39,163 nt of DNA from a virus. Lineage: Duplodnaviria; Heunggongvirae; Uroviricota; Caudoviricetes. The DNA lies in the IMG/VR virus record IMGVR_UViG_2541047942_000002. One strand, 5' to 3'. This document shows positions 9,183-34,413 of the stretch, one piece after another. How positions within the stretch are numbered: the stretch's first letter is position 1; each line of letters starts with the position of its first letter. The position numbers were made by a program, and so were the translations under genes. Below the pieces are notes generated by a model. It did no database searches. It saw only the letters and a list, made by a program, of their open reading frames with translations, and was not told where the DNA came from.

Positions 9183-9193
9183 ACATCCCCCTT

Positions 9194-9547: not shown

Positions 9548-9558
9548 AGCGCCTCCCG

Positions 9559-9954
9559 TTATTGCATTCTGGCCAGGCCGCGCTCTGTCATTTCAGCTGC
9601 CACACCGGCAGAGACACGGAACGCCGTTCCCGGCAGCACAAATGCCACAGCCTCATCCCGCGTGGCGTGAAGTGCATCAGTATGCAGCGTCACCAGTGCC
9701 ACAACCGTGACCAGATCAGCCGTATCAGTCACGGTATCCGGCTGCGCTGATACAACCTCATTTTCATGTCCGGTCAGCACATTTTCCGGGCTGAGAGGGG
9801 TATCCTGACCGGCAGTGTCGCCCGTGTCATCAAGCTCTTCTTCCAGCTCTGCCACACGGAGCGCCAGTTCTTCTTTCGTCCCCGTCAGGCTGATATCACG
9901 GTTCAGTTGTTCACCCAGCGAGCGGAGACGGGCAATCAGTTCATCTTTCGTCAT
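9559..9954 (-). CDS. FI: DNA packaging / head completion protein FI
   Basis: ORF trimmed to ATG at 9952-9954 (MTKDELIARLRSLGEQLNRD...), preceded by GGAGGA; lambda gpFI-like. Confidence 0.85.
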   Translation of the reverse strand: MTKDELIARLRSLGEQLNRDISLTGTKEELALRVAELEEELDDTGDTAGQDTPLSPENVLTGHENEVVSAQPDTVTDTADLVTVVALVTLHTDALHATRDEAVAFVLPGTAFRVSAGVAAEMTERGLARMQ

Positions 9955-9995
9955 GGACTCCTCCACAGAGAAACAATGGCCCCGAAGGGCCATGA

Positions 9996-11021: not shown

Positions 11022-11076
11022 AAAAAAATCCCGTAAAAAAAGCCGCACAGGCGGCCTTTAGTGATGAAGGGTAAAG

Positions 11077-11409
11077 TTAAACGATGCTGATTGCCGTTCC
11101 GGCAAACGCGGTCCGTTTTTTCGTCTCGTCGCTGGCAGCCTCCGGCCAGAGCACATCCTCATAACGGAACGTGCCGGACTTGTAGAACGTCAGCGTGGTG
11201 CTGGTCTGGTCAGCATCAACCGCCAGAATGCCAACGGCAGCACCGTCGGTGGTGCCATCCCACGCAACCAGCTTACGGGTGGAGGTATCCAGCATCAGCG
11301 GGGTCATTGCAGGCGCTTTCGCACTCAATCCGCCGGGCGCGGTTGCCGTATGTGCCGGGTCACTGTTGCCCAGCGGCTGGTAATGGGTAAAGGTTTCTTT
11401 GCTCGTCAT
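11077..11409 (-). CDS. D: head decoration protein D
   Basis: ORF trimmed to [27 protein letters not shown]..., lambda gpD-like. Confidence 0.9.
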
Positions 11410-11418
11410 AAACATCCC

Positions 11419-12718
11419 TTACACTGGTGTGTTCAGCAAATCGTTAACGGCATCAGATGCCGGGTTACCTGCAGCCAGCGGTGCCGGTGCCCCCTGCATC
11501 AGACGATCCAGCGCAGTGTCACTGCGCGCCTGTGCACTCTGTGGTGCAGCTGCCAGAATGCGGCGGGCCGTTTCCACGGTCATACCGGGGGTTTCGGCCA
11601 GCACGCGGGCCTGTTCTTCGCGTCCGTGAGCCTCCTCACAGTTGAGGATCCCCATAATGCGGCTGTTTTCTGCCGCAACCGCAGCGGTGATCTGCGCGTT
11701 CACGTCCGGCTGCGCCGCGCTGGCGTTTTCGCCCTCCGTCGCTGGCACCACGTCAGTAACGTCAGTCTGCGAAGCAGTGGCTGAAACAGTTGTTGATTGA
11801 GTCTCTTTGGTCATTCGCCCTCCTGAGAGACGGGATTTACGCGCATCCAGTGCATCACGCATGACGGTGATCGCATCGGTGCTGTTAACAAGTTCATCAG
11901 CCAGTCCGGCATCAATGGCCTCCTGACCGCTGTACACTGCAGCCTCGGTATCCAGCACAGCCTGCACAGACAGGCCGGTATATGCCGACACCTTCTGTGC
12001 AAACATCTGGCGGGTTGCGTCCATCCGGGACTGCAGTGTCTCCCGGACGTCATCCGGAAGATGGCTGTAGGGATTGCCATCCACCTTATGGCTGCCGCTG
12101 TAAATCAGCGTGATTTCCACACCCTGTTTCTCCAGGGCAGCACCGTAATTACTGTGAGCCATCATGACGCCGATGGAGCCTGTCCGGGCGGTCTGCGTGA
12201 CCAGACGCCGGGAGGCGGCACTGGCAAGCAGCTGACCTGCACTGCAGTTCATGTCGTTGGCCAGCGCCCATACCGGTTTTATGTCACGCACACGGGCGAT
12301 GATGTCAGCGCAGTCAAATGCCCCCGCCACCATTCCGCCTGGCGTGTCCATATCGAGCAGAATGCCGTCCACCATCGGGTCGCTGGCAGCCTGTTGCAGA
12401 CGGGCGATAATGCCGTTGTAACCGGTCATCCCCGAGTACGGCTGCAGCGCCCGCGTCCGGCTGACCAGCGTGCCGGACACCGGCAGCACGGCGATGCCGT
12501 TCATGACCTGATAACTGCGGGCCTGTCGTGGTCCGTCATCATCACCGGATAATGCCAGCGTCGCGAGTGCCTCCTGGGCAGTCAGGCTGTCGCCGGACAC
12601 CGCATCCGTCAGGCGGCTGATCCCAAGCTGGCCTGCAAGCGCACAAAAGAAAACCCGCGCATAGGCGGGTTCAAGCATCAGCGGCTCATTAAAAGCCATA
12701 CTGGCAATATGCGGGAGA

Positions 12719-12738
<20 letters not shown>
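11419..12738 (-). CDS. C: capsid assembly protease C (ClpP-like S49 family); scaffold Nu3 is expected to be nested in-frame in its 3' part
   Basis: Long ORF; lambda gpC-like sequence begins at VTAELRNLPHIASMAFNEPLMLEPAYARVFF..., implying a GTG start at ~12736-12738 preceded by AGGAGG with a 6-nt spacer; overlaps B 3' end. Confidence 0.8.
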
Positions 12739-16419
<3,681 letters not shown>

Positions 16420-16445
<26 letters not shown>

Positions 16446-17353: not shown

Positions 17354-17548
17354 ATGTCAACGAAGAACAGAACCCGCAGAACAACAACCCGCAACATCCG
17401 CTTTCCTAACCAAATGATTGAACAAATTAACATCGCTCTTGATCAAAAAGGGTCCGGGAATTTCTCAGCCTGGGTCATTGAAGCCTGCCGCCGGAGACTA
17501 ACGTCAGAAAAGAGAGCATATACATCAATCCAGAGTGATGATGGATGA
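17354..17548 (+). CDS. hypothetical small basic protein (possible ribbon-helix-helix DNA-binding fold)
   Basis: 64-aa ATG-initiated ORF between cos and IS3; weak RBS; no recognised homolog. Confidence 0.3.
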   Translation: MSTKNRTRRTTTRNIRFPNQMIEQINIALDQKGSGNFSAWVIEACRRRLTSEKRAYTSIQSDDG

Positions 17549-17808
17549 ACATCCCGGTTTCTTGACCTTCCCTCCCTCCCCGCACAGAACTGGCGAGCGT
17601 GAGGGACCAATATGTGAGCCATAAATGCCTTATCTTCAGAAATGTAGTTGGTATCCGAATAGAACGATATTGTAAATTCACCTAAATACGAGGCATTGCT
17701 GTAGTTGAATTGCAGTACTGTATTAGCCTGACAGTGACAGAATACGATATTGACTCTGTCACTTGTGAAATGGTCAGATGATCCTACCCACGTAATATGG
17801 ACACAGGC

Positions 17809-18675
17809 CTAAGCGAGGTTCTTGTTTTCAAATTGTTCCGGACTGAGGCCGCCACACCAACTGTGCCGCCGCCACCGATTGTAATCACATTCGATATAAT
17901 TAAACACCGTTGCCCGCATTATTTCCCGGCTGATAAAGTGTTCTCCATGGATACATTCCACTTTCAGCGAATGAAAGAAGCTTTCCACGCAGGCATTATC
18001 GTAGCAGCAACCTTTTGCGCTCATACTTCCACGCAGATTATGCCGCTTCAGTTGCGCCTGATAATCTGCTGAACAGTACTGGCCTCCACGGTCCGTGTGA
18101 ACGATAACGTTCCGGGGCCTCTTACGCCGCCACAGCGCCATCTGCAGGGCATCGCAGGCCAGTTGCGCCGTCATGCGTGGCGACATTGACCAGCCAATAA
18201 CGGCACGTGACCACAGGTCAATGACCACTGCCAGATACAGCCAGCCTTCATCTGTACGTAAGTACGTGATGTCTCCTGCCCACTTCTGGTTCGGGCCACT
18301 GGCGTAAAAATCCTGCTCCAACAGATTTTCTGACACAGGCAGGCCGTGTGCGCGGTAGCTGACCGGGCTGAACTTCCGGGAGGCCTTTGCCCTCAGTCCC
18401 TGACGGCGCAGGCTTGCCGCCACGGTTTTTACGTTAAAGGGGTAACCCTGAGCACGCAGTTCATCCGTCAGGCGTGGGGCACCGTAACGCTGTTTTGACC
18501 GGGTAAAAGCCGCGAGGACAACGCTGTCGCAGTGTTGGCGGAACTGCTGACGCGTGCTTATCCTTGTCCGCCGCTGACACCACGTATACCAGCCGCTGCG
18601 GGCCACCCGGAGCACGCGGCACATTGCTTTGATGCTGAACTCAGCCTGATGTTTTTCAATAAAGACATACTTCAT
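17809..18675 (-). CDS. insF: IS3 transposase OrfB (DDE integrase core; normally made as an OrfAB frameshift fusion)
   Basis: 288-aa ORF ([30 protein letters not shown]...) recognisable as IS3 InsF. Confidence 0.9.
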
Positions 18676-18971
18676 TTCAGGCGCTTCGCGAAGTATGTCG
18701 CGGCCTTTTGGAGGATAGCCAGCTCTTCATCCCGTTCTGCCAGCTGGCGTTTGAGACGTGCAATCTCGGTAGACATCTCCAGTTCACGTTCAGAAGACGT
18801 CTGCTGATTTTGCTGTTTACTGCGCCAGTTGTAGAGTTGTGATTCATACAGGCTGAGTTCACGGGCTGCGGCAGTAACACCGATGCGTTCAGCAAGCTTC
18901 AGGGCTTCACTGCGAAATTCAGGCGAATGCTGTTTACGGGGTTTTTTACTGGTTGATACTGTTTTTGTCAT
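18672..18971 (-). CDS. insE: IS3 transposase OrfA (HTH)
   Basis: ORF trimmed to ATG at 18969-18971 ([31 protein letters not shown]...), 99 aa. Confidence 0.9.
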
Positions 18972-19059
18972 GTGAGTCACCTCTGACTGAGAGTTTACTC
19001 ACTTAGCCGCGTGTCCACTATTGCTGGGTAAGATCAAGAATGGTTAGCAGTTATGGTGA

Positions 19060-19266
19060 TCAGTCAACCACCAGGGAATAATCCTTCGTATTCTTATCGT
19101 GCTTTACTAACGCGGCCTCAATTGCCCTGAATGCTTCCAGAGATACTTGATGTTCTATACATGCAATTACAACATCCGGGTAACCCATCGAAATGGTGCT
19201 ATTAAGCATAGTTTTTACACGAACCTGCTCCTGGGAGGGGGCATCAATGTATTGATCTTTATGCAT
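19060..19266 (-). CDS. hypothetical protein (68 aa)
   Basis: ORF-track ORF ending 24 bp from the IS3 end; no recognised homolog. Confidence 0.35.
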
Positions 19267-19561
19267 TTTGTCGCTCCATTCGTTTGCTCTTCACTTGCGG
19301 CTAAAAATATAACGTCAAATCACTCAGCATGAAAGAGTGAAAGTTTCAGCGCGTTTCCCTTACATAATCTGTCGTTTGTATTCTCTTCAGGCATACCGGA
19401 AAGACTAGGTATTGTCACACAACCAATACCATCGACAATCGAGATTTATATCTATTCGGTAATGTTTAAATATAACAAAACCCCGTAAAAACGAGGTTTA
19501 TGGGTAATTTGTATTGTTGAATAGCATCTGATGAGAAATTGATGCTAATACTATAAACATA

Positions 19562-20138: not shown

Positions 20139-20408
20139 ATGTTACCGTAATATGTGAGTATCCATCGACTAGACACTAAGCAAAAAAGCTCCCGAAGGAG
20201 CCTTCATTTTCACTTTCTTAAATCTAACGACAGATGGCTAACATTTAAGTATTGTGAAATATTATCAAATGTAATCATCATTGATTTACAAAAGATACAT
20301 TTTGCCCCGAAAGGATTTCTGTCAGAAACATCAAAAGATGATGTTCTATACTGAGAACCATGGCAACACGGGCATCTAAAGTGAATATGGTTTGTAATAT
20401 TTTCTACC

Positions 20409-20621
20409 TCAAAGTGCCACTACATGAACAGCTGCAGGGCCTTTAGGTCCGTTCTCAATACCAAATTCGACTTCCTGATTCTCAGTTAACGTTTTGAAAT
20501 CGTTGCTCTGAATAGCTGAGAAATGCACAAACACATCTTTGCTACCATCTTTCGGCGTGATGAAACCAAAACCTTTTTCAGGGTTAAACCATTTCACTAA
20601 ACCAGTCATTTTGTTAGACAT
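20409..20621 (-). CDS. cspI: cold-shock protein, CspA family
   Basis: 70-aa [45 protein letters not shown]... with RNP1/RNP2 motifs; long AT-rich upstream leader typical of csp genes. Confidence 0.85.
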
Positions 20622-20984
20622 TATTATTACCTTTTGAAGAAGTTAGCCCTTGGGCAGAATGGTCCGAAAAAAAATATCAGAGAGAAAAACCAACAAGGAA
20701 ATCTCAAGAGGTACAAATAATAAAATTATAACAATGACTGCTTCAGATAATTTTGTAACAAACCAGAACACCATTAACGCATGATTAACCAACCATAGCA
20801 AGGATTACTTTTGTAAAGAAAAACACACGAATGAAACAATAGCTTTATTTATTAATAAAACGTGTCATTCTGTCTAATGACCTTTTATCTTACCCTTAAG
20901 ATTTCAAGGATTTTGACTCATGGAAGAGTCCTTTTTATTTAAATTTCACATTCAGCGCTAAAAATAATCCGATTTAATATTAAT

Positions 20985-22067: not shown

Positions 22068-22382
22068 CTAACAACCCGTAATCGAGTTATCTGAACTGTT
22101 AATTTTTATGGTATACCGAGCCTCTGAACAGGGTCGCGTTTCTGGCAACAGCTCGTCCCCTTCACATAACCCGGCAGCAACATCCAGGAAGACCTGTCTG
22201 ATGCTCCTTCTGGCTGCTGCCTCATAAAACTCCAGCGCGGCACCTTCAACATGGTCCAGCGAGATGTCCAGGTCAAAAATTTCACCGTCAAAGCGTTCTT
22301 TGTCCTGTAAGGCTACAGTTACCGTAACTTTATTCTCAAAATTACGGACTCCTTTCACAACCAGTTCATAGTCTTGAGTCAT
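22068..22382 (-). CDS. ydfR: hypothetical protein located between holin and endolysin
   Basis: 104-aa ORF; symbol assigned from position (holin - this gene - endolysin, as I recall for Qin) and length, not from verified sequence identity. Confidence 0.5.
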   Translation of the reverse strand: MTQDYELVVKGVRNFENKVTVTVALQDKERFDGEIFDLDISLDHVEGAALEFYEAAARRSIRQVFLDVAAGLCEGDELLPETRPCSEARYTIKINSSDNSITGC

Positions 22383-22386
22383 TGGA

Positions 22387-22602
22387 TTACTCTCCTCTCG
22401 CAGCCTTACGCCTGTCTTCTTTAATCTTGAAATAAAGATTTGTCAGATACGTCAGCAGGCCAAAAACCAGGCTACCCAGCACACCGATTGCAGCCCACTG
22501 TGACGGAGTTACTTTATCGAGTAACTGCAATGCCCAGAAACCAGCATTACCCGCCGATGTGCCATAGGCAACACCTGTTGTTAACTTATCCATTGATTTC
22601 AT
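22387..22602 (-). CDS. essQ: class II holin (phage-21 S21-like pinholin), probable dual-start holin/antiholin
   Basis: 71-aa product [71 protein letters not shown] with two TM segments and charged C-terminus; two in-frame ATGs three codons apart; directly upstream of a SAR endolysin. Confidence 0.85.
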
Positions 22603-22821
22603 ATCCTCACCCCGATGTACACGGATGGTGCAATATGTTTGAAAAGATCGGAGTCTACGGGGTAGTTTTGACAGCACACGTTGTTCTCAACGGCGCTAAA
22701 AAAACATACACATTAAAAATGTGGGTAATTATTTTGAAAGAAAGTCATATATAAAATAATAATACGAGAAATGTTTTCATATTTAGTGTACTGTATACGG
22801 CCATTTATACAGGAAAAGCCT

Positions 22822-22992
22822 ATGTCAGAACGTAAAAACTCAAAATCACGCCGTAATTATCTCGTTAAATGTTCCTGCCCAAACTGCACCCAAGAGTCAG
22901 AACACAGTTTTTCAAGAGTACAAAAAGGTGCCCTTTTGATCTGCCCTCATTGCAACAAAGTATTCCAGACAAATCTTAAAGCTGTAGCCTGA
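22822..22992 (+). CDS. hypothetical small zinc-ribbon protein (CxxC...CxxC)
   Basis: 56-aa product MSERKNSKSRRNYLVKCSCPNCTQESEHSFSRVQKGALLICPHCNKVF... from an internal ATG preceded by AGGAAAAG; opposite strand to the late operon. Confidence 0.4.
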   Translation: MSERKNSKSRRNYLVKCSCPNCTQESEHSFSRVQKGALLICPHCNKVFQTNLKAVA

Positions 22993-23045
22993 TTGATTTT
23001 ATTAGTAACAAGTATTTTTTATATTTTAATAATATATTTAAAGCA

Positions 23046-23073
23046 GATAATAAAAAACCCGCCTGAGCGGGTT
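23046..23073 (-). terminator. putative intrinsic terminator (hairpin AACCCGC-CTGA-GCGGGTT with U-tract on the minus strand; possibly bidirectional)
   Basis: Perfect 7-bp GC-rich stem read from the sequence, followed on the minus strand by TTTTTTATTAT. Confidence 0.5.
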
Positions 23074-23355
23074 TGAGATTGTGGTGCTTTTTGTGGGAGT
23101 CATCCACTTACGCACTTTGTTTTGCCATGCCAGCAGTTAGCTTCTGCTGTAAAACTATTCATGCAGCAAACCTGCACTTCACCACAATGGTTAGCATACT
23201 TTTCCTGATTAAGATTTTGCCAAATATGCTAGCCATTGTTTCATGTATTGGACCTCCTTACTTTTTATTAAAGAGATCCAATATTCACTACTCTGTCCGT
23301 ATCTCTACTCAGGCATCAGCCTTCTTCGTTATCGTATACAGACGAGCGATGAATT

Positions 23356-23571
23356 TTAATCAGTAATGATGACATTTGCTGCTGCAGGACCTTTAGCACC
23401 ACTCTCTATAGAGAAGGTAACCTTTTGACCTTCAAATAAGGTTCGATAATTATCATTCTGAATCGCAGAAAAATGCACAAACACATCTTTACTACCATCA
23501 ACAGGAGAAATAAAGCCGAAACCTTTATCAGCGTTAAACCATTTTACTAAACCAGTCATTTTATTTGACAT
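23356..23571 (-). CDS. cspB: cold-shock protein, CspA family
   Basis: 71-aa [56 protein letters not shown]...; divergent from cspF as in Qin. Confidence 0.85.
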
Positions 23572-23871
23572 TCTACATTCCTTAACTTGAGCCTTTCGGC
23601 ATAAATGGTTTGCATAACAGAAACGACTTCGTACTTAATTGGAGAGACTCAAAGAAGGAATAAGTGAATAACACCTGAAATGAGAACTGCTTTAGTAAAC
23701 TACTTCGTATATCGTCTGTTCTTCAAACCGACGCAATCATTAACGCATAGTTGAACATATGAAGCAATGTTTATTTTAGACATCCAGCCGTCTTCAACCC
23801 CATCAAAAAACTATAGCTTTCTTCAGGAACGTGTGTATAGTGCGCCAAGTTATCAGTATTAAGGAATTTTT

Positions 23872-24084
23872 TTGTCCCGTAAAATGACAGGAATTGTCAA
23901 AACCTTTGACGGCAAAAGCGGCAAGGGTCTTATCACCCCATCCGATGGTCGTATCGATGTCCAGCTTCATGTTTCAGCGCTCAATCTCCGCGATGCAGAA
24001 GAAATTACCACCGGATTACGCGTGGAATTTTGCCGGATAAATGGTCTGCGTGGCCCTTCAGCTGCCAATGTTTACCTTTCATGA
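23872..24084 (+). CDS. cspF: cold-shock-like protein (divergent CspA-family paralog)
   Basis: 70-aa [47 protein letters not shown]... Confidence 0.85.
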
Positions 24085-24376
24085 GCTATATTAAAGCTTT
24101 AATTTCAGGCCCCATCGGATCACACATGGAGAGTTTTTATGAATAACCCCGTCTGTCTTGATGACTGGTTGATTGGCTTTAAAAGCTTATGCTGTACTTT
24201 GGCCGTAATAGCTCTGCTAATAATATAATAAGCAGACTCATTGTGTTTAGGGACATTGTACTGGAAGAAAACATTTTAAACATCAGGCAAATAACCAAGT
24301 CACCAGCTAAATAATAAGTTAACAGACATGAGTCCCGGGATGAGATTCAACATTACCATTGCCCCATTTAAAGCAC

Positions 24377-24400
24377 AAAACCCGCTCATCAGCGGGTTTT
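24377..24400 (-). terminator. tR'-like hairpin downstream of the late promoter (AAAACCCGC-TCATCA-GCGGGTTTT); possibly bidirectional
   Basis: Perfect GC-rich stem ~50-60 nt downstream of the predicted pR' start; on the plus strand it is followed by CTACTTTTTCTT, on the minus strand by GUGCUUU. Confidence 0.6.
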
Positions 24401-24445
24401 CTACTTTTTCTTAACGTCGGGTATACAAAGCCCATCGTTGAAAAA

Positions 24446-24474
24446 ATTTTATCCATATTTTTTGAAAAATGCAA
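24446..24474 (-). promoter_or_regulatory. late promoter pR' candidate (minus strand -35 TTGCAT, 17-nt spacer, -10 TAAAAT) immediately downstream of Q
   Basis: Hexamers read directly as reverse complement of ATGCAA (24469-24474) and ATTTTA (24446-24451); position relative to Q and the tR' hairpin mirrors lambda pR'-qut-tR'. Confidence 0.65.
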
Positions 24475-24505
24475 ACATCATGTCGCCATCTTCAGCAAAA
24501 ATCAT

Positions 24506-25258
24506 TTATCTCGTCACCTTCCTCAATTGCGCTTCCGCGTATGCTTCTTCCTGCCAGCACTTTGTTACCAGTTTACCAATGACGTCCGCATACCCCTTAT
24601 ACCACTGATAATCGGTCAGGTCTGGTACCAGCTTCTGGACATGACGTCGTGCCAGCGTGGTCGGTAAACGACTAAACCGGTTTCCATTACAACGCCCACA
24701 AATCTTATATACCGGTACGCCATGAAACCGGGTTCTTTTTTCATCCAGAACAATCCCTTTACCCTTACACCCTCTGCACGCTGTGCTGGCTTCGCCCTTA
24801 CCATGGCAATGCTGACATAGTTCCTTCACCCATTCTTCCTTGATTACAGATTCCCCGCGTCTGTAGTGTTTCACCACTTCGCGCAATACATTATAAAATC
24901 CCGTACCTGAACAATGCTCACAGCGAGCCTTACTTGCCGCAGACCTGGAGTAATCAGCAAAGGCAAAACTCACGAGGTAAGGAATAATCTGTAACCGGAT
25001 TTCTTCACTCAATTTGTTCAATGTCGGGTTATCCAGTGCCATCGCGTAATTTAGCAGGCCTTCAATCGCAAACTGAGGGTCCTGAACACCAACTTTTGCC
25101 AGAAATAAGGCCAACCCAAGTGGTGCTTTCGACTGCACCATCCCCTGCGCTGCCATTACATCCGTAATTGTTAAACAACCGGTGCCTGTCGCTGGAGCGT
25201 CATCGCTCAATTTTGGAGATTTTGGGGAGTAATATTTTGGTAAGGCTTCAAGGTTCAT
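24506..25258 (-). CDS. quuQ: late-gene antiterminator Q
   Basis: ORF trimmed to MNLEALPKYYSPKSPKLSDD... (250 aa); four CxxCxGxG-type motifs (CEHCSGTG, CQHCHGKG, CRGCKGKG, CGRCNGNR); located immediately upstream of pR'/tR'. Confidence 0.8.
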   Translation of the reverse strand: MNLEALPKYYSPKSPKLSDDAPATGTGCLTITDVMAAQGMVQSKAPLGLALFLAKVGVQDPQFAIEGLLNYAMALDNPTLNKLSEEIRLQIIPYLVSFAFADYSRSAASKARCEHCSGTGFYNVLREVVKHYRRGESVIKEEWVKELCQHCHGKGEASTACRGCKGKGIVLDEKRTRFHGVPVYKICGRCNGNRFSRLPTTLARRHVQKLVPDLTDYQWYKGYADVIGKLVTKCWQEEAYAEAQLRKVTR

Positions 25259-25271
25259 GCTCGTTCTCCAC

Positions 25272-26321
25272 TTACGCCAGTACGCCAATTGCCAGCGCGC
25301 GATCGATAAAACGAAATATCAGCTCCAGTTGGGAGCCATACTTATCTTCAAATGCCACTGTATCCGTATGCAGCTCGTTGTGATGCTTTCTGCACAAAGG
25401 CAACACAAAGAGATCATGTGCTTTTGTTCCCATTCCGCCCTGCCCGTGACCAATCAGATGATGCGGATCGTCGGCTGGCATACCGCAGCAAGCACACGGC
25501 TGTGTCTTAACCCAACGTGTGTATTTCTCCTTAACCCAGCGGCGACGTTTAGGCAGCTTCATGAAAGATTCCGGAGACTCTGGATCAACGGTGATGCTTA
25601 CCACCGTCTTTTCCTGTGGTGATTTTTGTTGCTGGTGGGCGTAAGGCAACGGTGCAAGATTTTTTGTGCGTTGTTTCAATATGCTGGTGGCGGTCTGCTC
25701 TCCCGGTACGATGTCGCTTTCGCGGTACACCGAGCAGATTTTTTCCGCTGGTAATCCCAGCGAACGACGCGATACAGCCTCAGGTAGTGCATCCACCACC
25801 TGATTGCAGACCGCCCACCAGGATAATTCAGCCAAAGATAATTCCCGCTCCTGCGTACCGCTTATTGCGTGACGGATGACGTCAATCACCCATGCTGTCA
25901 GATTTTGTTGAGCAAGCAGCTCCAGTGATTCCGATGTCTGGTCACGCAGTTGGTTGTCGCAGTGCCAGCACAACACCATTGCGCCGGTACCATAACGGTG
26001 AATGACTGTTTCAGTGTGATGGTAATCGCCATTAGGCCACTGGCAGGATGTAACATGACGTAATAGCCAGTCGGACAATGCGCCAACGCCGCCAGCAGCA
26101 CGAATCACCCGTTCGTTACTAAAAAACGGCAGCAATGTTTTGTCTTCCGCCAGCGGCTGGCGAACGGCAGGAACGACTCCGGATGGCAGATTACGCATGC
26201 TTTTTGGTTCCGGTTCCACCAGCACTCGAGGATTATGAAATATCTGTATGGATTCACGGCCCGGCTTAAGGACCACCAGCCCAAGCTCAGGCACCAGAAC
26301 AGGTCTAAGTAATACCCGCAC
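25272..26321 (-). CDS. ydfU: nin-region protein with C-terminal HNH-like zinc-finger nuclease motif
   Basis: 349-aa product from a GTG at ~26319-26321 preceded by GGAGG; C-terminal CACCG...DPHHLIGHG...CRKHHNELH motif. Confidence 0.7.
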   Translation of the reverse strand: MRVLLRPVLVPELGLVVLKPGRESIQIFHNPRVLVEPEPKSMRNLPSGVVPAVRQPLAEDKTLLPFFSNERVIRAAGGVGALSDWLLRHVTSCQWPNGDYHHTETVIHRYGTGAMVLCWHCDNQLRDQTSESLELLAQQNLTAWVIDVIRHAISGTQERELSLAELSWWAVCNQVVDALPEAVSRRSLGLPAEKICSVYRESDIVPGEQTATSILKQRTKNLAPLPYAHQQQKSPQEKTVVSITVDPESPESFMKLPKRRRWVKEKYTRWVKTQPCACCGMPADDPHHLIGHGQGGMGTKAHDLFVLPLCRKHHNELHTDTVAFEDKYGSQLELIFRFIDRALAIGVLA

Positions 26322-26322
26322 G

Positions 26323-26601
26323 TTACCTCCAGATCCGTTGCTGGAAAGTGCGGGACGCACGTGGTGGGCGTTCGGAATAAGGCAGCCTGACAGAGATTAT
26401 CCAGTGCCGATAGTCGAGACTGAGAGCTTTCTTAACCTCGAACCCGCGCCTGCGGTAAGAATGAATCAGCCATTCGGCCTGTTCTGCAGTGCATGGAGGG
26501 TGCTGGAACCATTCAGACTTGAATGCGTGAGAATACCGCCCGTGCGTGCAGGCAAGAACGGGCGAATTATCAGAATTGTAATATTTTGCGTTGCGTGCCA
26601 T
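26323..26601 (-). CDS. hypothetical protein (92 aa), tightly coupled upstream of ydfU
   Basis: ORF-track ORF ending 2 nt before the proposed ydfU start; no recognised homolog. Confidence 0.35.
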   Translation of the reverse strand: MARNAKYYNSDNSPVLACTHGRYSHAFKSEWFQHPPCTAEQAEWLIHSYRRRGFEVKKALSLDYRHWIISVRLPYSERPPRASRTFQQRIWR

Positions 26602-26667
26602 CGGTTTTCTCCGGTGGCACGGTGTTACTCAGCGGGAGTTCAGCCCCGCGCAAGATTGTAGATGAGT

Positions 26668-26919
26668 TTATTCTCCTGAAAAAGCAGAAAAGCCAGCTTT
26701 TATTCCGATCTCTTTCAATGCCTGTAATGAAGTGACAAACTCACCTTCGCGCAAGATAAATCCGTCCGTGACCCGAGCATCCACAAAATTAATTAACGCA
26801 GCCCCATTCTTTCGCAAACACATAATGCGGTAATGACTAACAAGATTTCCATTTTCAACGCACACAGCATAGAGGCCATCTTCACAAAAAATTTTACGCA
26901 GTTCTTCGATGTTCATCAT
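26668..26919 (-). CDS. rem: small prophage protein Rem
   Basis: 83-aa ORF MMNIEELRKIFCEDGLYAVCVENGNLVSHYRIMCLRKNGAALINF..., in the position rem occupies in Qin. Confidence 0.7.
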   Translation of the reverse strand: MMNIEELRKIFCEDGLYAVCVENGNLVSHYRIMCLRKNGAALINFVDARVTDGFILREGEFVTSLQALKEIGIKAGFSAFSGE

Positions 26920-27032
26920 CAGAATCCTTCCGGATAATTAGCTCTCCCCTTTAAGGGACCATCCCTCTTATCCCTGCGCGCTACTTAAGTATTTTTGATT
27001 CTATTCCGGCACCGTCCAGAACTTCAAACGCG

Positions 27033-27067
27033 TTGAAAATAAAAACAAAAACCCGCCGAAGCGGGTT
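27033..27067 (-). terminator. intrinsic terminator of the relB-relE-hokD operon (hairpin AACCCGC-TTCG-GCGGGTT followed by a long U-tract on the minus strand)
   Basis: Perfect stem with tetraloop read from the sequence, followed on the minus strand by TTTTTGTTTTTATTTT; ~70 nt downstream of the hokD stop. Confidence 0.75.
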
Positions 27068-27135
27068 AAGTGCGGGTGCGTTGAGGATGCCTGCCACATC
27101 AGAGGTGGCGAGGGATTTCTCCCCCGCCGGGTCTC

Positions 27136-27291
27136 TTACTCCTCAGGTTCGTAAGCTGTGAAGACAGCGACCTCCGTCTGGCCGGTTCGGATTCGTACCT
27201 CGCAGAGGTCTTTCCTCGTTACCAGTGCCGTCACTATGACGGTTAAACAGATGACGATCAGGGCGATTAACATCGCCTTTTGCTGCTTCAT
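27136..27291 (-). CDS. hokD: Hok-family type I toxin (small membrane peptide)
   Basis: Not in the ORF track (51 aa). Minus-strand ATG at 27289-27291 to TAA at 27136-27138 translates to MKQQKAMLIALIVICLTVIVTALVTRKDLCEVRIRTGQTEVAVFTAYEPEE, a Hok/Gef-family sequence; located downstream of relE. Confidence 0.85.
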   Translation of the reverse strand: MKQQKAMLIALIVICLTVIVTALVTRKDLCEVRIRTGQTEVAVFTAYEPEE

Positions 27292-27362
27292 AGCCTGCTT
27301 CTCCTGTCAACGCAAAGCAGAAGTGTCACCTTCGGTGCGAAACAGAGATGTCATGCTTTGGT

Positions 27363-27650
27363 TCAGAGAATGCGTTTGACCGCCTCGCTATATACTTCCG
27401 AGCGTTCTCTTTTCCCAACAGAAATCACGAAAACGACAACTTTCTCGTCTATAACCTGGTATACAAGGCGATAGCCTGAAGACCGGAGCTTAATCTTGTA
27501 ACAATCAGGCATACCACGGAGCTTGTTTGCTTCAATCCGGGGTGACTCAAGTACTTCAACCAGCTTCTTTTTCAACTGTTCACGTACCGTCGAGCCCAGC
27601 TTTCGCCATTCCTTTAGTGCCCGCTCGTCAAAATCCAGAAAATACGCCAT
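27363..27650 (-). CDS. relE: mRNA interferase toxin RelE
   Basis: 95-aa ORF MAYFLDFDERALKEWRKLGSTVREQLKKKLVEVLESPRIEANKLRGMPDCYKIKLRSSGYRLVYQVIDEKVVVFVISVGKRERSEVY... Confidence 0.95.
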   Translation of the reverse strand: MAYFLDFDERALKEWRKLGSTVREQLKKKLVEVLESPRIEANKLRGMPDCYKIKLRSSGYRLVYQVIDEKVVVFVISVGKRERSEVYSEAVKRIL

Positions 27651-27889
27651 CAGAGTTCATCCAGCGTCACACGTACTGGCTTAGGATTACGAAGCCGTTC
27701 TTTCACTATCTCCACAAGTTCAGCATCTTCATCACTCAGGAGTGTCTGTTTGAACGGCAAGCGTTCATTGTCAGCGATATACTCGAGCATGAGACGAAGC
27801 GCTTCAGAAGGAGTTACACCCATTTTTTCAAGCGCGGCGTAAGAACGCGCTTTAAGTTCATCGTCAATACGCAGGTTAATGCTACCCAT
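27650..27889 (-). CDS. relB: antitoxin RelB
   Basis: 79-aa ORF MGSINLRIDDELKARSYAALEKMGVTPSEALRLMLEYIADNERLPFKQTLLSDEDAELVEIVKERLRNPKPVRVTLDEL; stop overlaps the relE start. Confidence 0.95.
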   Translation of the reverse strand: MGSINLRIDDELKARSYAALEKMGVTPSEALRLMLEYIADNERLPFKQTLLSDEDAELVEIVKERLRNPKPVRVTLDEL

Positions 27890-27894
27890 GTCTT

Positions 27895-27930
27895 ACACCT
27901 ATTGTAATTACAAATGTCATTACAAGTATC
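27895..27930. promoter_or_regulatory. relBE promoter/operator region containing the perfect palindrome TTGTAATTACAA and an adjacent TGTCATTACAA half-site
   Basis: Palindrome read directly at ~27902-27913, 13 nt upstream of the relB start codon. Confidence 0.6.
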
Positions 27931-28219
27931 GCACTACAACATGCTTAGGGCAAGTCACGAAGGAAGTCAGAAAGTAGTCGTAAGAACGGTGATCACTGTC
28001 CGCTTTGTGCCAGGAGCAGCCATTGCTAAGTCCATCCTGTATTGTGCAGGTCAGCTCGTTTTTAAAGAGTCCGGCCATCATCTTACTGGTACAGACACCA
28101 TATACTTTGTGACGGTCAGGCTACATATGCACAACTCAACTTATTCATCTATTTTTTGCTTTAGCATGTCAGTGTTGCTTTCTCGTCGGCGGGTGAGCGG
28201 TGACCTGACCTGTCGATAA
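27914..28219 (+). CDS. ydfV: hypothetical protein (101 aa)
   Basis: ORF-track ORF between relB and flxA; symbol assigned by position and length only; coding potential uncertain. Confidence 0.35.
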   Translation: MSLQVSHYNMLRASHEGSQKVVVRTVITVRFVPGAAIAKSILYCAGQLVFKESGHHLTGTDTIYFVTVRLHMHNSTYSSIFCFSMSVLLSRRRVSGDLTCR

Positions 28220-28371
28220 AGGAACGTAGCACGTTTTATGCAACACCCGCATGCGGCAGAAAATTATTGCCGAACGTTTACCCCTGTCAACAAGCTTTAC
28301 TTTCTGAGGCGCGCCAGCCCGCGAGGAAAACAATCTGAACATCAAACAATTAATGACACAAGAAATACGAT

Positions 28372-28398
28372 TAAAGATTTTTTTGTGCATGCCGATAG
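28372..28398 (+). promoter_or_regulatory. sigma-28 (FliA) class 3 flagellar promoter: TAAAGATT, 11-nt spacer, GCCGATAG
   Basis: Near-consensus match to TAAAGTTT-N11-GCCGATAA read directly, ~25 nt upstream of the flxA ATG. Confidence 0.75.
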
Positions 28399-28421
28399 TG
28401 CTTTTTTAAAAGGAGAAATCT

Positions 28422-28754
28422 ATGTCTGTCACAATTCAGGGAAATACCTCAACCGTTATTTCAAACAACTCCGCCCCGGAAGGAACATCAGAAATAGCCA
28501 AAATCACAAGACAAATTCAGGTGCTGACTGAAAAGCTTGGGAAAATCTCATCGGAAGAGGGGATGACGACACAGCAGAAAAAAGAAATGGCTGCATTGGT
28601 ACAGAAGCAAATTGAAAGCCTCAGGGCTCAACTGGAGCAGTTGTTAAGGCAGCAGGCAGAGAAAAAGAATAAAGACGCGACAGTTCAGCCTGATAAAAAA
28701 GAAGAGAAAAAAGACGATACAAATACCGCTGGCACCATTGATATTTACGTCTAA
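28422..28754 (+). CDS. flxA: FliA-regulated protein FlxA
   Basis: 110-aa ORF MSVTIQGNTSTVISNNSAPEGTSEIAKITRQIQVLTEKLGKISSEEGMTTQQKKEM... Confidence 0.85.
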   Translation: MSVTIQGNTSTVISNNSAPEGTSEIAKITRQIQVLTEKLGKISSEEGMTTQQKKEMAALVQKQIESLRAQLEQLLRQQAEKKNKDATVQPDKKEEKKDDTNTAGTIDIYV

Positions 28755-28768
28755 GTGACAGCCGTATT

Positions 28769-28795
28769 GTGGCCCTCATCGGGCCACTTTTCGCC
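28769..28795 (+). terminator. intrinsic terminator after flxA (GTGGCCC-TCATC-GGGCCAC followed by TTTTCGCC)
   Basis: Perfect 7-bp GC stem directly after the flxA stop. Confidence 0.6.
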
Positions 28796-29190
28796 ATCAG
28801 CCTTTTCTTTAAAGACATATTATCTTTGTATCATTTCTGATAGTTAACATTACAAGATATAAGTAATGGACGCACTCCCAATTAGTCTATTTAAATCGCC
28901 ACGAGTTTAACTGACAACCCATGATCAATTATGAATTGCAACTATTTCTGTAGTCACTTTTGTGGGGACAGTCCACAAAACTGCCAACTTCCGCTTCTTG
29001 CTCTTAGCGGACATTAGCATAGGCTATTTACCATAACGCCTCATTACGCGCACCGCCCAGACTGACTCAGCGCGTTTCTGGCATATCCCCGGTAAAACAA
29101 GTAACAAACCACCCGAAAATGAACACCAGAAACGCGACTTAAGAATCTACCCTATGAATGGATATGCACTCAACCGAATCGATCTTGGTT

Positions 29191-30531
29191 TCAATCTATT
29201 TTATCGGGATCAGGCTTCTTTTTAGGTAACTTCGGGGGCTTAACTTGCTGATGACTTTGCGTTCGGCGCGTAAGCCAGGGATGGTCAGCTTTAGATTTAA
29301 CATAGTATTTTGAGCGTAAATCAATACGGGCATTATCCACTCGTTCATGGACACTCTTTTCATCATCCAGTGGTATAGGCTCCGGGCCATCAACATACTT
29401 TTCCCAGCCCAGCGCTTTCCCGTCATACAGAACGTTAATTTCACCGTCAAAGTTCTCACATACAGTAACAACCGAATGCCTAAGTCGATATCCCCGGCCC
29501 TCACTGCGTACCTGAAACGCACTGCTTTTGTACTGGAAAGTGAGATTTTTAGACAGAACGCGCTTCGCCTGTAGGCTGAAGATATAACCCAGTTCCTCTT
29601 CAGAATGGTGCACATCAAGATGAGCATTATCAGTAGTACGAGGCGACGTAGCGAACCGGTTGTTATAGGCTTCAATAAAGGTCGGCAACCATGCATTTGC
29701 TGTTTCAATATCACTGATATTCTGAAGCCGCATTTCTTTGACCAGCCTGTCCTGTAGTGTCTGATTGGCGCGCTCTACCCGCCCTTTTGCCTGCGGGCTG
29801 TTGGCATGGATTGGCTCGATGCCCTGTGTCTTTATCGCACGAGTGAACTGGGTCAGCTCACCTTCCCGCTCTGGGTTATTTACCCTGAATATACTGTGTC
29901 TATCAGAGTAGAGAGCGAGCGGTACGCCATGATCATTAAGGTAACCCCGGAGGGTTTCCATGTAAGCCCGGGTTGTTTCAGCAGGCACAAAACGCAACGC
30001 CATCAACGCACTGGTGGCATCATCAATGAAAACGATCAGTGTACATCTGGGGCCTCGATTTTCAAACCAGTCATGAGGTGAGCCATCAATCTGGATCAGT
30101 TCACCGTAAGATGGTCGTCGCATGCGGCGTTGATATATACGGGCAATTTTACGACGGCGTTCACGCCATAACCCCTCTTCTATCATCCACTTTCTGAGAG
30201 TTTCAACGGATAAAGATAAACCGTGTATCTCGCGCAATTTTTCGCACGCAAACGTAGGTCCAAAATCAGCGTAACGGCCTTTGAGGAGTGAAATTACTGT
30301 TGCTCTGAATTCAGTAGAAAAGGAATTATTAGGATGCTTTCCACGTCGGTGGGAAACCAGACCAGAAGGCCCTTCATTTCTATACCGTTGCACCAGACGT
30401 TTAACCTGCCGAATAGAAATGCCAATGCGTGCCGCAGCTTGTTCCTGAGTAATATGTCGATTAATTGACTCCTGAATAATCTGAAGTCGGTGGAGTTCCT
30501 TATGACTCATCGTAACAGTCTCTTTGATCAT
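29191..30531 (-). CDS. DDE transposase of the retroviral-integrase (rve) superfamily, IS481/IS21-IstA-like, with N-terminal HTH
   Basis: 446-aa ORF with HTH-like N-terminus and an rve-type catalytic core (QIDGSPHDW ... LALYSDRHSIF ... SPQAKGRVERANQTLQD); element ends not resolved. Confidence 0.8.
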   Translation of the reverse strand: MIKETVTMSHKELHRLQIIQESINRHITQEQAAARIGISIRQVKRLVQRYRNEGPSGLVSHRRGKHPNNSFSTEFRATVISLLKGRYADFGPTFACEKLREIHGLSLSVETLRKWMIEEGLWRERRRKIARIYQRRMRRPSYGELIQIDGSPHDWFENRGPRCTLIVFIDDATSALMALRFVPAETTRAYMETLRGYLNDHGVPLALYSDRHSIFRVNNPEREGELTQFTRAIKTQGIEPIHANSPQAKGRVERANQTLQDRLVKEMRLQNISDIETANAWLPTFIEAYNNRFATSPRTTDNAHLDVHHSEEELGYIFSLQAKRVLSKNLTFQYKSSAFQVRSEGRGYRLRHSVVTVCENFDGEINVLYDGKALGWEKYVDGPEPIPLDDEKSVHERVDNARIDLRSKYYVKSKADHPWLTRRTQSHQQVKPPKLPKKKPDPDKID

Positions 30532-30564
30532 GAAAAATCCCCCAGAGAATTGTCTGGGGACATT

Positions 30565-30984
30565 TTAGAATGGTTCAAAGGGGACATTACAGCTTGGTGT
30601 TAACAATAGCCTGCTTCTCCTTGCCTTCCGGCACTCGCGACAGATTATGTTTAGACGACTGTCGTAGCGACGTATTTCTCCGTCAGGTAATGACCAGATA
30701 AGGTCCGGATCAACCACAGCAGGTTTCTTCACCTTTGCCCTCGAGAGTTTTTTGCGGGCGTTTTGCCAGTCCTTACGCGCCTGTTCAGACGGGAATAACC
30801 CGTAACCAGAGCTGTATACATCGCCACTGGCAACCAGCTCTCTGGCCAGAACGCTCATCAGATATCTTGTTGCCCCAGTTTTAGCTTCCAGTTGTCGTAA
30901 CGTCTCGCGCCCACTCTGGCGTACGAGTTCCACCACCTGCCCTTTAATTTTTTCCCGCTCTTCTTGTGTAAAAACTTTTGCCAC
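30565..30984 (-). CDS. hypothetical prophage early protein (139 aa), possibly altered at its 3' end by the adjacent transposase insertion
   Basis: ORF-track ORF downstream of the replication gene; C-terminal 25 residues are low-complexity and run into the hairpin flanking the transposase gene. Confidence 0.45.
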   Translation of the reverse strand: MAKVFTQEEREKIKGQVVELVRQSGRETLRQLEAKTGATRYLMSVLARELVASGDVYSSGYGLFPSEQARKDWQNARKKLSRAKVKKPAVVDPDLIWSLPDGEIRRYDSRLNIICRECRKARRSRLLLTPSCNVPFEPF

Positions 30985-31024
30985 AAGTCCTCCTGAACAT
31001 TACTTTATACCCTAAAATCAACAC

Positions 31025-31990
31025 TTATCCCCTGAAACCAGGCGGAATTTCTGTATCCGGTTCAGAAATATGATTCACACAACGCTGTACAGGTGAACGT
31101 CCCAGGCGGATGACCAGTTCGTCCCATTTTTCGCGGAGTTTTGACGGGCTCATGATGTTTTTTACCCAGAATTGATCTCGCTGTACCCGACCAAACATTT
31201 CGCAAATTTGTCTGTGGCTTCTGCCATCCAGCATCCGCATTGTGCGCACGTCATTGGCCCAGGCTGTCCAGTTAGGCTCTTTTGGTCGCATGATCTCTCC
31301 ATCGTCGCTGGCAGCCTGTTCGTAAAGGTTCACGATCCGCCCCCAAATCCACTGCGCACACGCCAAATCCTCCCTGCTACCCCACTGGCGTTTTTTCGCA
31401 CTAAACACAACCGCGTCGGGGTTCCGGGTTAAAAAATCCTGTTCAGCGGTCTGCGGGTCCGGTTGCGAAGCTTCCGGACGAAAAGTGTTTTTATTCTCTG
31501 TAGTAATCTCTGTTGTATTCTCTGTAAGATCATCAGGCCATTTTGACCCGATGACATTGGGTCGTTTTGAACCAATGGAGCGTTTCATTTTGACCTCTTC
31601 CATCGTGTCATTTTGACCTGATGGAGCGGCGCATTTTAAACCGATGGATTCGCTCAATTTGCCACCATCTAAAAGCTCGCTCCCGTAGTTGATCGTGTAG
31701 AAATTGGTCATATCGCGCTTTGATTTATTGAGCTTTTCACAACGCAAAAGCCCCAGCGTTTTCAGACTTGCAAACGCGCGCTTTAACGTTGACTCTGACC
31801 AGAATGGGAACTGTTCCAGCCATTGTTCCGTTGTGTTGTAAATCCAGCGAACACCATCACATTCCATGCCGGAATTGGTATCTCTCAACCAGTAATGCAA
31901 CTGCTGCAACACAATGGCTTCATTTAAGCCAATCTTCATCGCAAGCTGTGTGTTTATAACCAGTGGGCGTTCAGCAAAAAGAAGGCTCAT
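31025..31990 (-). CDS. replication initiator, lambda O-like replisome organiser containing the origin iterons
   Basis: ORF trimmed to internal ATG (MSLLFAERPLVINTQLAMKIGLNEAIVLQQLHYWL...) because the ORF-track start is a TTG overlapping the upstream gene; five ~23-bp iterons inside the coding region. Confidence 0.7.
   Translation of the reverse strand: MSLLFAERPLVINTQLAMKIGLNEAIVLQQLHYWLRDTNSGMECDGVRWIYNTTEQWLEQFPFWSESTLKRAFASLKTLGLLRCEKLNKSKRDMTNFYTINYGSELLDGGKLSESIGLKCAAPSGQNDTMEEVKMKRSIGSKRPNVIGSKWPDDLTENTTEITTENKNTFRPEASQPDPQTAEQDFLTRNPDAVVFSAKKRQWGSREDLACAQWIWGRIVNLYEQAASDDGEIMRPKEPNWTAWANDVRTMRMLDGRSHRQICEMFGRVQRDQFWVKNIMSPSKLREKWDELVIRLGRSPVQRCVNHISEPDTEIPPGFRG
31538..31650. repeat. 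origin-of-replication iteron array: five direct repeats of ~19 bp (CATTTTGACC-type) at ~23-bp periodicity, with an AT-rich/TCTCTGT-repeat region on the low-coordinate side
   Basis: Repeats read directly: CCATTTTGACCCGATGACA, CGTTTTGAACCAATGGAGC, CATTTTGACCTCTTCCATC, CATTTTGACCTGATGGAGC, CATTTTAAACCGATGGATT. Confidence 0.75.
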
Positions 31991-32492
31991 AATTCCATCC
32001 AGCTTTTTGTTGGTATTGCTGTCGATACGCAAGTTTGAAAGCAATTGCTTTTTCTATAAGTTCGTCAGTTTCACGATCCACTACGGCAGGATCAGCAAAA
32101 AGCAGTCCGGACTCCACCACATCGCCATATTCTTTGTTTAACCCGGCGATCATGTACGTGATGCTTTTTCCGTCACTAATTTCACGATACAACCTGAAAT
32201 CATTAATCCGAATAGCCTCCATAATTGCAGGCACTAGCGCCGTGAACTTTTCACGCTTATCCCTGGTGTCGATAGCCTTCCAGCGTTCGAATATCTTCAC
32301 TCGATTAACGCCAAGTGCTCGCTGATCAACCGCGCCACCTTCATCTGTGACACGCTGAACATCGATGTTCGGGCGCTCTTTCAAAGCCCAGAATGCTTCA
32401 GTGATTAATATCGTCGCCTGCTCCTGTGTCATTCCTGGTCGACATATCCAGGCATCCAGAGCCTCACGAGCCTGTTCAGGAGTGATTTTCAT
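31971..32492 (-). CDS. hypothetical early protein (173 aa) immediately downstream of the cro-like dicC
   Basis: ORF-track ORF MKITPEQAREALDAWICRPGMTQEQATILITEAFWALK...; start overlaps the dicC stop; no recognised function. Confidence 0.55.
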   Translation of the reverse strand: MKITPEQAREALDAWICRPGMTQEQATILITEAFWALKERPNIDVQRVTDEGGAVDQRALGVNRVKIFERWKAIDTRDKREKFTALVPAIMEAIRINDFRLYREISDGKSITYMIAGLNKEYGDVVESGLLFADPAVVDRETDELIEKAIAFKLAYRQQYQQKAGWNYEPSFC

Positions 32493-34355: not shown

Positions 34356-34413
34356 TTTCTGGTGACGTTTGGCGGTATCAGTTTTACTCCGTGACTGCTC
34401 TGCCGCCCTTTTT
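34356..34413 (+). ncRNA. dicF: DicF small regulatory RNA (ftsZ-targeting) with its intrinsic terminator
   Basis: Sequence TTTCTGGTGACGTTTGGCGGTATCAGTTTTACTCCGTGACTGCTCTGCCGCCCTTTTT matches DicF as I recall it; GGCGG...CCGCC stem plus U-tract; located between the ydfB/C-like ORF and dicB. Confidence 0.8.

Follow-up and report, generated by a model that had tools for sequence, protein, structure and literature searches.

Positions 27033–27930 of this DNA raise the question of whether three small genes form a complete operon that joins two kinds of toxin–antitoxin (TA) system, a type II pair and a Hok toxin of the type I class, and of what would control the Hok toxin there. In what follows, the window is the whole analysed stretch of 39,163 nucleotides. 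The three genes, consecutive minus-strand ORFs, are relB, relE and a 51-aa hokD. The relBEF operon has been known in sequence since the 1980s; operator, structures and regulation are all solved, and hokD is catalogued among the five hok genes of Escherichia coli K-12. We consider it very probable that what lies here is the canonical relBEF operon, carried by a Qin-type lambdoid prophage, and that in this operon hokD is a normally silent or very weakly made passenger cistron without an RNA antitoxin.

Identity and layout of the operon

RelB, RelE and HokD are each 100% identical to the proteins of E. coli K-12 MG1655, where they are encoded by relB (b1564), relE (b1563) and hokD/relF (b1562) in the cryptic prophage Qin. 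The earlier note had called the operon complete and proposed an alignment to K-12 relBEF; this alignment showed no inactivating mutation in relB, relE or hokD and a single DNA difference, at 27901, in the 961 bp of 27000–27960, so the operon is indeed intact. A megablast search of 27000–27960 against 5,426 complete E. coli genomes recovered the whole unit in 1,162 of them, annotated as relB/relE/hokD in all, and RefSeq labels the identical DNA relB/relE/hokD within 'cryptic prophage Qin'. The likeness to K-12 relBEF covers genes, order, strand relations, operator, spacer, 3′ UTR and terminator, as well as the flanks, with rem, ydfU and ydfT on one side and ydfV and flxA on the other. The location in a prophage, also claimed before, agrees with this neighbourhood, which is that of a lambdoid (Qin-type) one, and 22177–29375 aligns to K-12 Qin without gaps at 99.7%. 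The host prophage nevertheless differs from that of K-12. Over 23000–31960 it matches strain STEC276 at 99.99% identity, and about 2.8 kb of additional DNA lie between ydfW and dicC, an IS remnant and a DUF977 gene among them. Nothing that we found contradicts the relBEF identification; the unit is long known, intact and, as a discovery, ordinary. Its features, in transcriptional order, are:

27948–27953, minus strand: −35 box TTGCCC of the promoter PrelBE, read by eye, with a 17-nt spacer to the −10 box
27925–27930, minus strand: −10 box GATACT of PrelBE, from sequence and conservation; its final T is the first base of relO
27902–27925, minus strand: operator relO, 24 bp, from an exact, unique match and a repeat finder
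27900–27896, minus strand: relB ribosome-binding site AGGTG, read from the sequence (27896–27901 with the variant base)
27650–27889, minus strand: relB, 79-aa ribbon-helix-helix antitoxin and repressor (Pfam RelB, K-12 identity)
27363–27650, minus strand: relE, 95-aa ribosome-dependent mRNA endonuclease toxin (Pfam ParE_toxin, K-12 identity)
27292–27362, minus strand: relE–hokD spacer, 71 nt, the first 58 nt of which (to TTGACA at 27305) belong to the relBE module
27305–27301, minus strand: hokD Shine–Dalgarno (SD) sequence AGGAG, 9 nt from the ATG
27136–27291, minus strand: hokD (relF), 51-aa Hok/Gef membrane toxin (HOK_GEF, K-12 identity)
27074–27086, minus strand: orphan fbi (fold-back inhibition) element CCUCAACGCACCC in the hokD 3′ UTR, its 5′ partner tac being absent
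27040–27067, minus strand: intrinsic terminator, stem-loop AACCCGC-UUCG-GCGGGUU and then UUUUUGUUUUU

All of these features lie on the minus strand, which corrects the earlier description. The range given there, 27033–27930, holds the three genes, relO, the −10 box and the terminator but leaves out the −35 box. RelB matches Pfam RelB over residues 1–79 (E = 1e-32) and, at full length, PDB 4FXE chain A, 2K29 and 2KC8_B. RelE belongs to the RelE/ParE superfamily (Pfam ParE_toxin, 2e-13) and matches at full length the RelE chains of 4FXE and 2KC8 and of the ribosome-bound 4V7J/4V7K, and HokD matches Pfam HOK_GEF at 1.2e-23. As expected of a RelBE system, the antitoxin gene comes first in the bicistron, and the TGA of relB and the ATG of relE share base 27650 (TGATG); the overlap, reported before as one codon, is really one base. 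With the ORFs and Pfam matches, an exact match to relO and a terminator hairpin, the operon is present with its operator and terminator, as had been proposed. The absence of hokD from the ORF track, also pointed out before, simply reflects the length of the gene, which falls short of the 60 aa usually required.

On the gene strand, the order is TTGCCC, 17 nt, GATACT, TTGTAATGACAT TTGTAATTACAA, T, AGGTG, 6 nt and ATG. The −35 box scores 8/12 and was hence missed by a consensus scan set at 9/12; it is kept as CTTGCC in the relBE modules of many genera, where the promoter hexamers and relO are conserved. The 24-mer TTGTAATGACATTTGTAATTACAA (0 expected) consists of two adjacent 12-bp half-sites that overlap the promoter and abut the −10 box, as in RelBE systems: the pseudo-palindromic TTGTAATGACAT at 27925–27914 and the perfect TTGTAATTACAA at 27913–27902, which occurs once in the window (0.1 expected at up to one mismatch). 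The perfect palindrome noticed earlier upstream of the genes thus exists, but it is merely the right half-site of relO. Together, the two half-sites make up four hexads [A/T]TGT[A/C]A, and the operator is identical to the one dissected by mutagenesis and footprinting, in which scanning mutagenesis and hydroxyl-radical footprinting placed RelB dimers on the four hexads of one pseudo-palindromic half-site and one perfect one, between which no spacing is tolerated (PMC2812701). In that work, the protected region spans −10 to +17 relative to the start site, and therefore transcription from PrelBE probably starts near 27918.

The one difference from K-12, at 27901 (A in the window and C in K-12; T instead of G on the gene strand), turns GAGGTG into TAGGTG just 3′ of relO, between the operator and the relB ribosome-binding site. 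The gene strand carries G here in K-12 and in every other relBE module examined; the effect of the change is probably small. At the other end of the unit, the terminator has a 7-bp stem with five G-C pairs and a UUCG loop (27067–27050), followed by TTTTTGTTTTT. Its predicted fold of −12.8 kcal/mol (z = −3.1) and the T-run are those of a Rho-independent terminator, in line with the strong intrinsic terminator of the earlier note.

Given the literature on the identical K-12 genes, a single promoter (TTGCCC-17-GATACT) would yield a relB-relE-hokD transcript of about 875 nt that ends at the intrinsic terminator; co-transcription of relB, relE and relF is known from northern blots (PMC3598666). Through the ribbon-helix-helix fold, RelB dimers would bind the four hexads of relO, which overlaps the −10 box and the start site, with the RelE:RelB ratio tuning repression. 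In studies of identical proteins and an identical operator, RelB is labile through Lon-dependent turnover, RelE cuts mRNAs at the A site of the ribosome, and RelB2-RelE binds relO cooperatively; RelE tightens repression by RelB with RelB in excess and lifts it with RelE in excess, which is known as conditional cooperativity (PMC2812701, PMC3507626).

A hok gene without its sok leader

As read from the sequence, hokD is here an incomplete type I system, the whole mok/sok leader being missing. The Rfam sok model (RF01794) gave no match at E ≤ 10 in 26900–28300; as positive controls, it scored 112 bits in the sok-bearing prophage copies L002/L003, 106 in L089 and 90 in L088. Homology to L002/L003 starts abruptly at AGGAGAAGCAGGCTATG (27305, the hokD ribosome-binding site), upstream of which the window has the relE 3′ end and the spacer. 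In L002/L003, the same gene is preceded by a promoter (TTGGCG-17-TAGAAT), a sok-matching leader and an in-frame mok start (70-aa ORF). The mok start of L002 lies upstream of the point at which homology breaks off, and we found no equivalent of it in the window and no tac-like sequence above chance. The tac/ucb refolding elements are likewise lacking, their 5′ leader part being absent from the window. The Hok-family gene reported earlier is thus a real HOK_GEF ORF but not a full type I TA locus. The earlier note had also proposed a search for a sok-like antisense promoter around the hokD 5′ end; the sok/mok leader is gone from the window, and therefore such a search has no target. A sigma-70 consensus scan detected no antisense promoter there, but it also detected none in the intact L002, missing its sok promoter, and we relied on the Rfam model and the alignment instead.

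The comparison with known hok loci points the same way. From 27305 downstream, the coding sequence, SD, 3′ UTR with fbi and terminator are 93–99% identical to hokW-sokW (mokW/hokW) of the Stx2 phages Sp5/933W and to the 'hokD' of L002/L003, which have their own promoter, tac, in-frame mok start and sok region where the window has relBE instead. L002 is a lambdoid prophage without relBE and shares with the window the neighbours rem, ydfU and ydfT. The hokD coding region and its 3′ flank occur in about 4,700 E. coli genomes, mostly without relBE, at up to nine copies per genome. With hok/sok of plasmid R1/IncF, the window shares a Hok/Gef toxin and a highly folded mRNA with a 3′ fold-back element, but the HokD coding sequence has clearly diverged from IncFII-plasmid hok (HokW, a close relative of HokD, is 44% identical to R1 Hok; PMC8621323), and the window lacks the Sok RNA, mok and the tac/ucb switch, with transcription coming from a protein-repressed type II promoter. 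Apart from hokB, the K-12 hok genes have been stripped of canonical TA components by IS elements or rearrangement (PMC12214031), and the leader loss in the window agrees with that view of K-12 hokD as a rearranged copy.

What is left of the hok architecture is its 3′ part. The hokD 3′ UTR is near-identical to that of the sok-bearing L002, fbi included. Minimum free energy (MFE) prediction gave the hokD mRNA body one and the same fold, whether taken from the window or from the intact L002 locus, and this fold places the SD and AUG in long-range stems; the predicted fold of the window RNA has z = −3.0. On these models, hokD would keep both the 3′ fbi element and a structured mRNA body. In the predicted L002 fold (z = −7.2), fbi pairs with the 5′ end (tac) GGGUGCUUGAGG. 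The Tyr47 codon of hokD, TAC at 27153–27151, is followed by G at 27150, a TACG context for TadA editing; A-to-I editing of hokD mRNA, at a Tyr codon that becomes Cys, is low at about 6% (PMC12214031).

Several candidate remnants or substitutes were considered and set aside. The 55-aa ORF at 27143–27310 (TTG start, out of frame) is a poor mok relic, with no Pfam match and no SD, and mok in the sok-bearing relatives is in the hok frame. For the spacer as a substitute for tac, the MFE structure pairs spacer UGCGUUGA with the orphan fbi UCAACGCA, though no better than shuffled spacers do: RNAduplex runs of spacer against 3′ UTR gave 376/500 for the window, and the spacer was no better than shuffled ones in four of the five loci tested (L012, 48/500). 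Weak Rfam matches on the hokD 3′ UTR (isrK at 25 bits against a gathering score of 50, rsmX and P9) are below threshold, recur in L002/L003 and amount to terminator-hairpin noise. Matches to a CRP-S site, a possible cause of the reported Sxy induction of hokD, were no commoner than chance.

Put together, these features show from the sequence that everything which controls a hok/sok locus from its 5′ side (the hok promoter, tac and ucb, the start of mok and the sok gene) was lost and that the relBE module stands in its place. hokD is here a passenger third cistron that keeps its own SD, coding sequence, 3′ fold-back element and terminator. HokD would have no RNA antitoxin and would be restrained solely by RelB/RelE transcriptional repression and by the long-range mRNA fold that appears to bury its start region, and therefore it should normally be silent or very weakly made. 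The usual cycle of activation and neutralization presumably cannot run when mok, tac/ucb and Sok are all missing; HokD output would be set by relBE transcription and by whatever opens the mRNA fold, with a very low default expectation. Speaking against a silent passenger are the good SD 9 nt from the ATG and an intact hokD ORF in about 1,160 E. coli genomes. Moreover, several toxins, once induced, cause cleavage of the relBEF transcript, of which the relF part is then the most abundant piece (PMC3598666); this would allow expression under stress. The HokD protein itself is toxic when over-expressed (bioRxiv 10.1101/2025.08.07.668861).

The relBE module outside this prophage

A separate observation concerns the upstream part of the unit, which recurs as a block:

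27305–28017, minus strand: conserved relBE module (promoter, relO, relB, relE and 58 nt of spacer), about 713 bp, with about 99% identity to other genera and plasmids

RelE relatives were found at 80 loci when one genome per species was scanned, and 35 of these loci have a RelE with at least 90% identity. The DNA of 28017–27305 is conserved in most of these 35 loci, reaching 98–99% in the closest group, which includes Kluyvera, Enterobacter, Citrobacter, Klebsiella, Pseudocitrobacter, Huaxiibacter and Superficieibacter. Homology ends sharply on both sides of the module, at its 3′ end with ...GCGTTGACA. A hok gene follows directly after TTGACA in 14 of the 35 loci, two further copies are disrupted, and the other module loci run on into unrelated DNA. 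At least six hok variants, all HOK_GEF, are found after the module: HokD, a 70%-identical relative, R1/IncF-like forms and others. The junction with the module lies 1–13 nt ahead of the ATG in every case, without a sok match in any; the module DNA is 99% identical, whereas the hok DNA aligns at only about 71–79%. One locus (L016) has a complete inverted sok leader after the module, joined exactly at the hok start codon. Prophage-type and plasmid-type hok copies lose homology to their sok-bearing counterparts at the same place, the hok SD.

The module is common on plasmids; at ≥99%, one particular hok is found on about 480 large, mostly conjugative plasmids of the Klebsiella type. In the relBE-hok units of large conjugative plasmids of Klebsiella, Enterobacter and Citrobacter (for example pA_F11, NZ_CP092902), the module is 99% identical to that of the window, promoter, relO and spacer included, and a sok-less hok is joined at the identical point, TTGACA followed by GGAGAA. 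These units differ in their hok, which is of the R1/IncF type and far more diverged from hokD than the module is, and in their replicon and flanks. Terminal inverted repeats were considered as transposon-like ends and rejected: a ~37-nt imperfect repeat (0/2000 shuffles in the window; weaker in L006, 5/2000; missed by a gapless repeat finder) is not conserved, being absent in the diverged L025 and L040. No target-site duplication was visible at the module ends.

In the literature searched, the key 1999 paper on chromosomal hok genes aside, we found no description of a portable module or of a repeated relBE-hok junction, and this modular, repeated junction may be new, the sole part of the locus with some potential for novelty. 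It may have arisen through one old fusion followed by exchange among hok paralogues, through a recombination hot spot or through selection for the hybrid. The occurrence of an intact hok after the same relBE module in other genera and on hundreds of plasmids could mean that the third gene is selected rather than tolerated. As a tentative and rather doubtful generalization, relBE with a sok-less hok might be a conserved hybrid, a type II repressor complex controlling a type I toxin, that circulates as a cassette among enterobacterial chromosomes, prophages and plasmids instead of being a one-off accident of K-12.

Possible roles of hokD in the operon

If hokD is more than a passenger, relBE might have replaced Sok: RelB/RelE repression, released under stress or at a high RelE:RelB ratio, would control Hok as a second, membrane-directed effector of the switch. 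We regard this as possible, though on balance doubtful. The ~713-bp module, 99% identical across genera, precedes at least six different intact, sok-less HOK_GEF genes with junctions 1–13 nt before the ATG, and the ~480 large, mostly Klebsiella, plasmids with one such hok at ≥99% identity, like the build-up of the relF part of the mRNA after toxin-induced cleavage (PMC3598666), are consistent with it. However, hok appears dispensable, as 21 of the 35 species-level loci with RelE at least 90% identical have none after the module and two more are broken (L017 and L034). The linkage is also explicable by one old fusion and hitch-hiking, the literature regards hokD as inactivated by rearrangement (PMC12214031), and in the literature examined we found no phenotype of chromosomal hokD. 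A role at prophage induction, like that of hokW-sokW in the Stx phage Sp5, is unlikely. Here, early-right read-through transcription towards Q would cross relBE-hokD, make HokD regardless of RelB and speed lysis or release. The unit does have replication-region genes on one side and the Q antiterminator (ydfT) on the other, and it shares its strand with Q and the lysis genes. The hokD coding sequence and 3′ UTR are closely paralogous to hokW, with 93% identity to phage 933W, and the hokW-sokW primers published in PMC8621323 fit the L002 leader and the 3′ UTR of the window. In that study, hokW-sokW doubled Sp5 release after mitomycin C, and a deposited complete phage genome, PhiR42_1 (48.7 kb), has the whole unit at 99.9% identity. 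Yet K-12 Qin is cryptic and defective, and the window prophage has IS remnants in its replication region; the read-through or antitermination step is suggested by position, translation may stay blocked without a mok start, and RelE made alongside would inhibit phage protein synthesis.

The earlier note had favoured prophage stabilization or abortive infection, in which infection or prophage loss would deplete RelB and free RelE, and with it HokD, to stop or kill the cell. This is speculation, which nothing found here supports, and we consider it quite improbable. It draws on features common to type II and type I TA systems in general, on a roughly fourfold enrichment of hok genes in prophages (bioRxiv 10.1101/2025.08.07.668861) and on the frequency of the relBE module on large conjugative plasmids. 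Against it, RelB, RelE and HokD match none of the PADLOC-DB 2.0 defence families at E ≤ 0.01, the chromosomal hok loci tested gave no post-segregational killing (summarized in bioRxiv 10.1101/2025.08.07.668861), and HokD lacks the pair of stable mRNA and unstable antisense RNA that hok post-segregational killing requires; nor did we find, in the literature examined, a phage-defence phenotype for K-12 relBEF. The reading that we prefer is thus still that of the canonical relBEF operon with hokD as a mostly silent passenger.

As the re-identification of a textbook locus, the main value of this analysis is quality control: gene calls and coordinates are right and the unit is intact, and hokD should be labelled 'type I TA' only with the caveat that there is no antitoxin RNA. 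A portable module with interchangeable sok-less hok genes, present in about 500 Klebsiella-type conjugative plasmids, could be of modest importance for understanding how TA modules come together and spread, and it could bear on the question of whether the RelBE switch really has HokD-like peptides as effectors.

The relBE module and its junctions

The window relBE segment (positions 27305-28017) was compared with the relBE loci of other species (L006-L040) and with L086. It forms a module of ~713 bp with sharp ends, conserved at 98-99% identity across many enterobacterial genera and plasmids. Directly after the module end ...GCGTTGACA, some loci continue with unrelated DNA and others with a sok-less hok gene, of which at least six different versions occur. 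At the Citrobacter portucalensis locus (L016, 2846-3011), a complete inverted sok/hok leader, with an Rfam sok match of 94.7 bits on the opposite strand, adjoins the right end of the module; the junction falls exactly at the hok ATG, and no hok coding sequence is present.

An imperfect inverted repeat of ~37 nt (27984-28021 and 27297-27333) flanks the module on both sides in the window, and the Shine-Dalgarno sequence of hokD falls within it. The window repeat scored higher than all 2000 of 2000 shuffles; its counterpart in L006 is weaker, and the repeat was not found in the diverged relBE modules L025 and L040.

At the left end, one annotated reading frame crosses the module boundary (~28017), starting inside the RelB operator relO:

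27914-28219, plus strand: ydfV

This ORF has no Pfam match, and conservation of its 3' part is lost in loci where the module has other surroundings; ydfV is probably not a real gene. The sole difference between the operon and that of K-12 lies at 27901, which is the first base of GAGGTG and directly adjoins relO on its 3' side; here the gene strand reads T in the window and G in K-12. The same T is found in STEC276, a strain 99.99% identical to window 23000-31960, and all other modules examined carry G.

Leaders and 3' UTRs of hok loci

In two sok-bearing loci of the hokW/hokD type, namely L002 (3137-3349, minus strand) and L003, the mok start and hok share one frame, and translation from this start gives a 70-aa ORF that corresponds to Hok with an N-terminal extension. 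In the IncFII/R1-type leader (L089), the ATG of mok lies in a different frame from hok. The hokD 3' UTR and terminator (27046-27127, minus strand) gave weak, sub-threshold Rfam matches, such as isrK at 25 bits, where the gathering score is 50. Because the same matches recur in L002 and L003, we regard them as probable noise from a hairpin followed by a U-run.

Prophage surroundings and a phage-borne copy

Rfam searches of the window identified three further RNA features, all exceeding their gathering thresholds:

20363-20768, minus strand: cspA-type thermoregulator 5' leader
23340-23732, minus strand: cspA-type thermoregulator 5' leader
34357-34408, plus strand: DicF small RNA

The leaders sit upstream of cspI- and cspB-like genes and, together with DicF, are as expected for a Qin-type prophage. 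Window positions 1-16436 and around 17517-19424 had no match to the K-12 region compared. Between ydfW and dicC, the window carries ~2.8 kb (29376-32212) missing from K-12 Qin; in the 99.99%-identical STEC276 region, this segment is annotated with a truncated ISEsa1-family transposase, a DUF977 protein and a hypothetical protein. The whole relB-relE-hokD unit is also present, at 99.9% identity, in Escherichia phage PhiR42_1 (PV340562, 5001-6018), deposited as a complete phage genome of 48.7 kb with ECOR13 as host. Its record names the downstream gene rem 'Antitoxin Rem', a label of the record itself.
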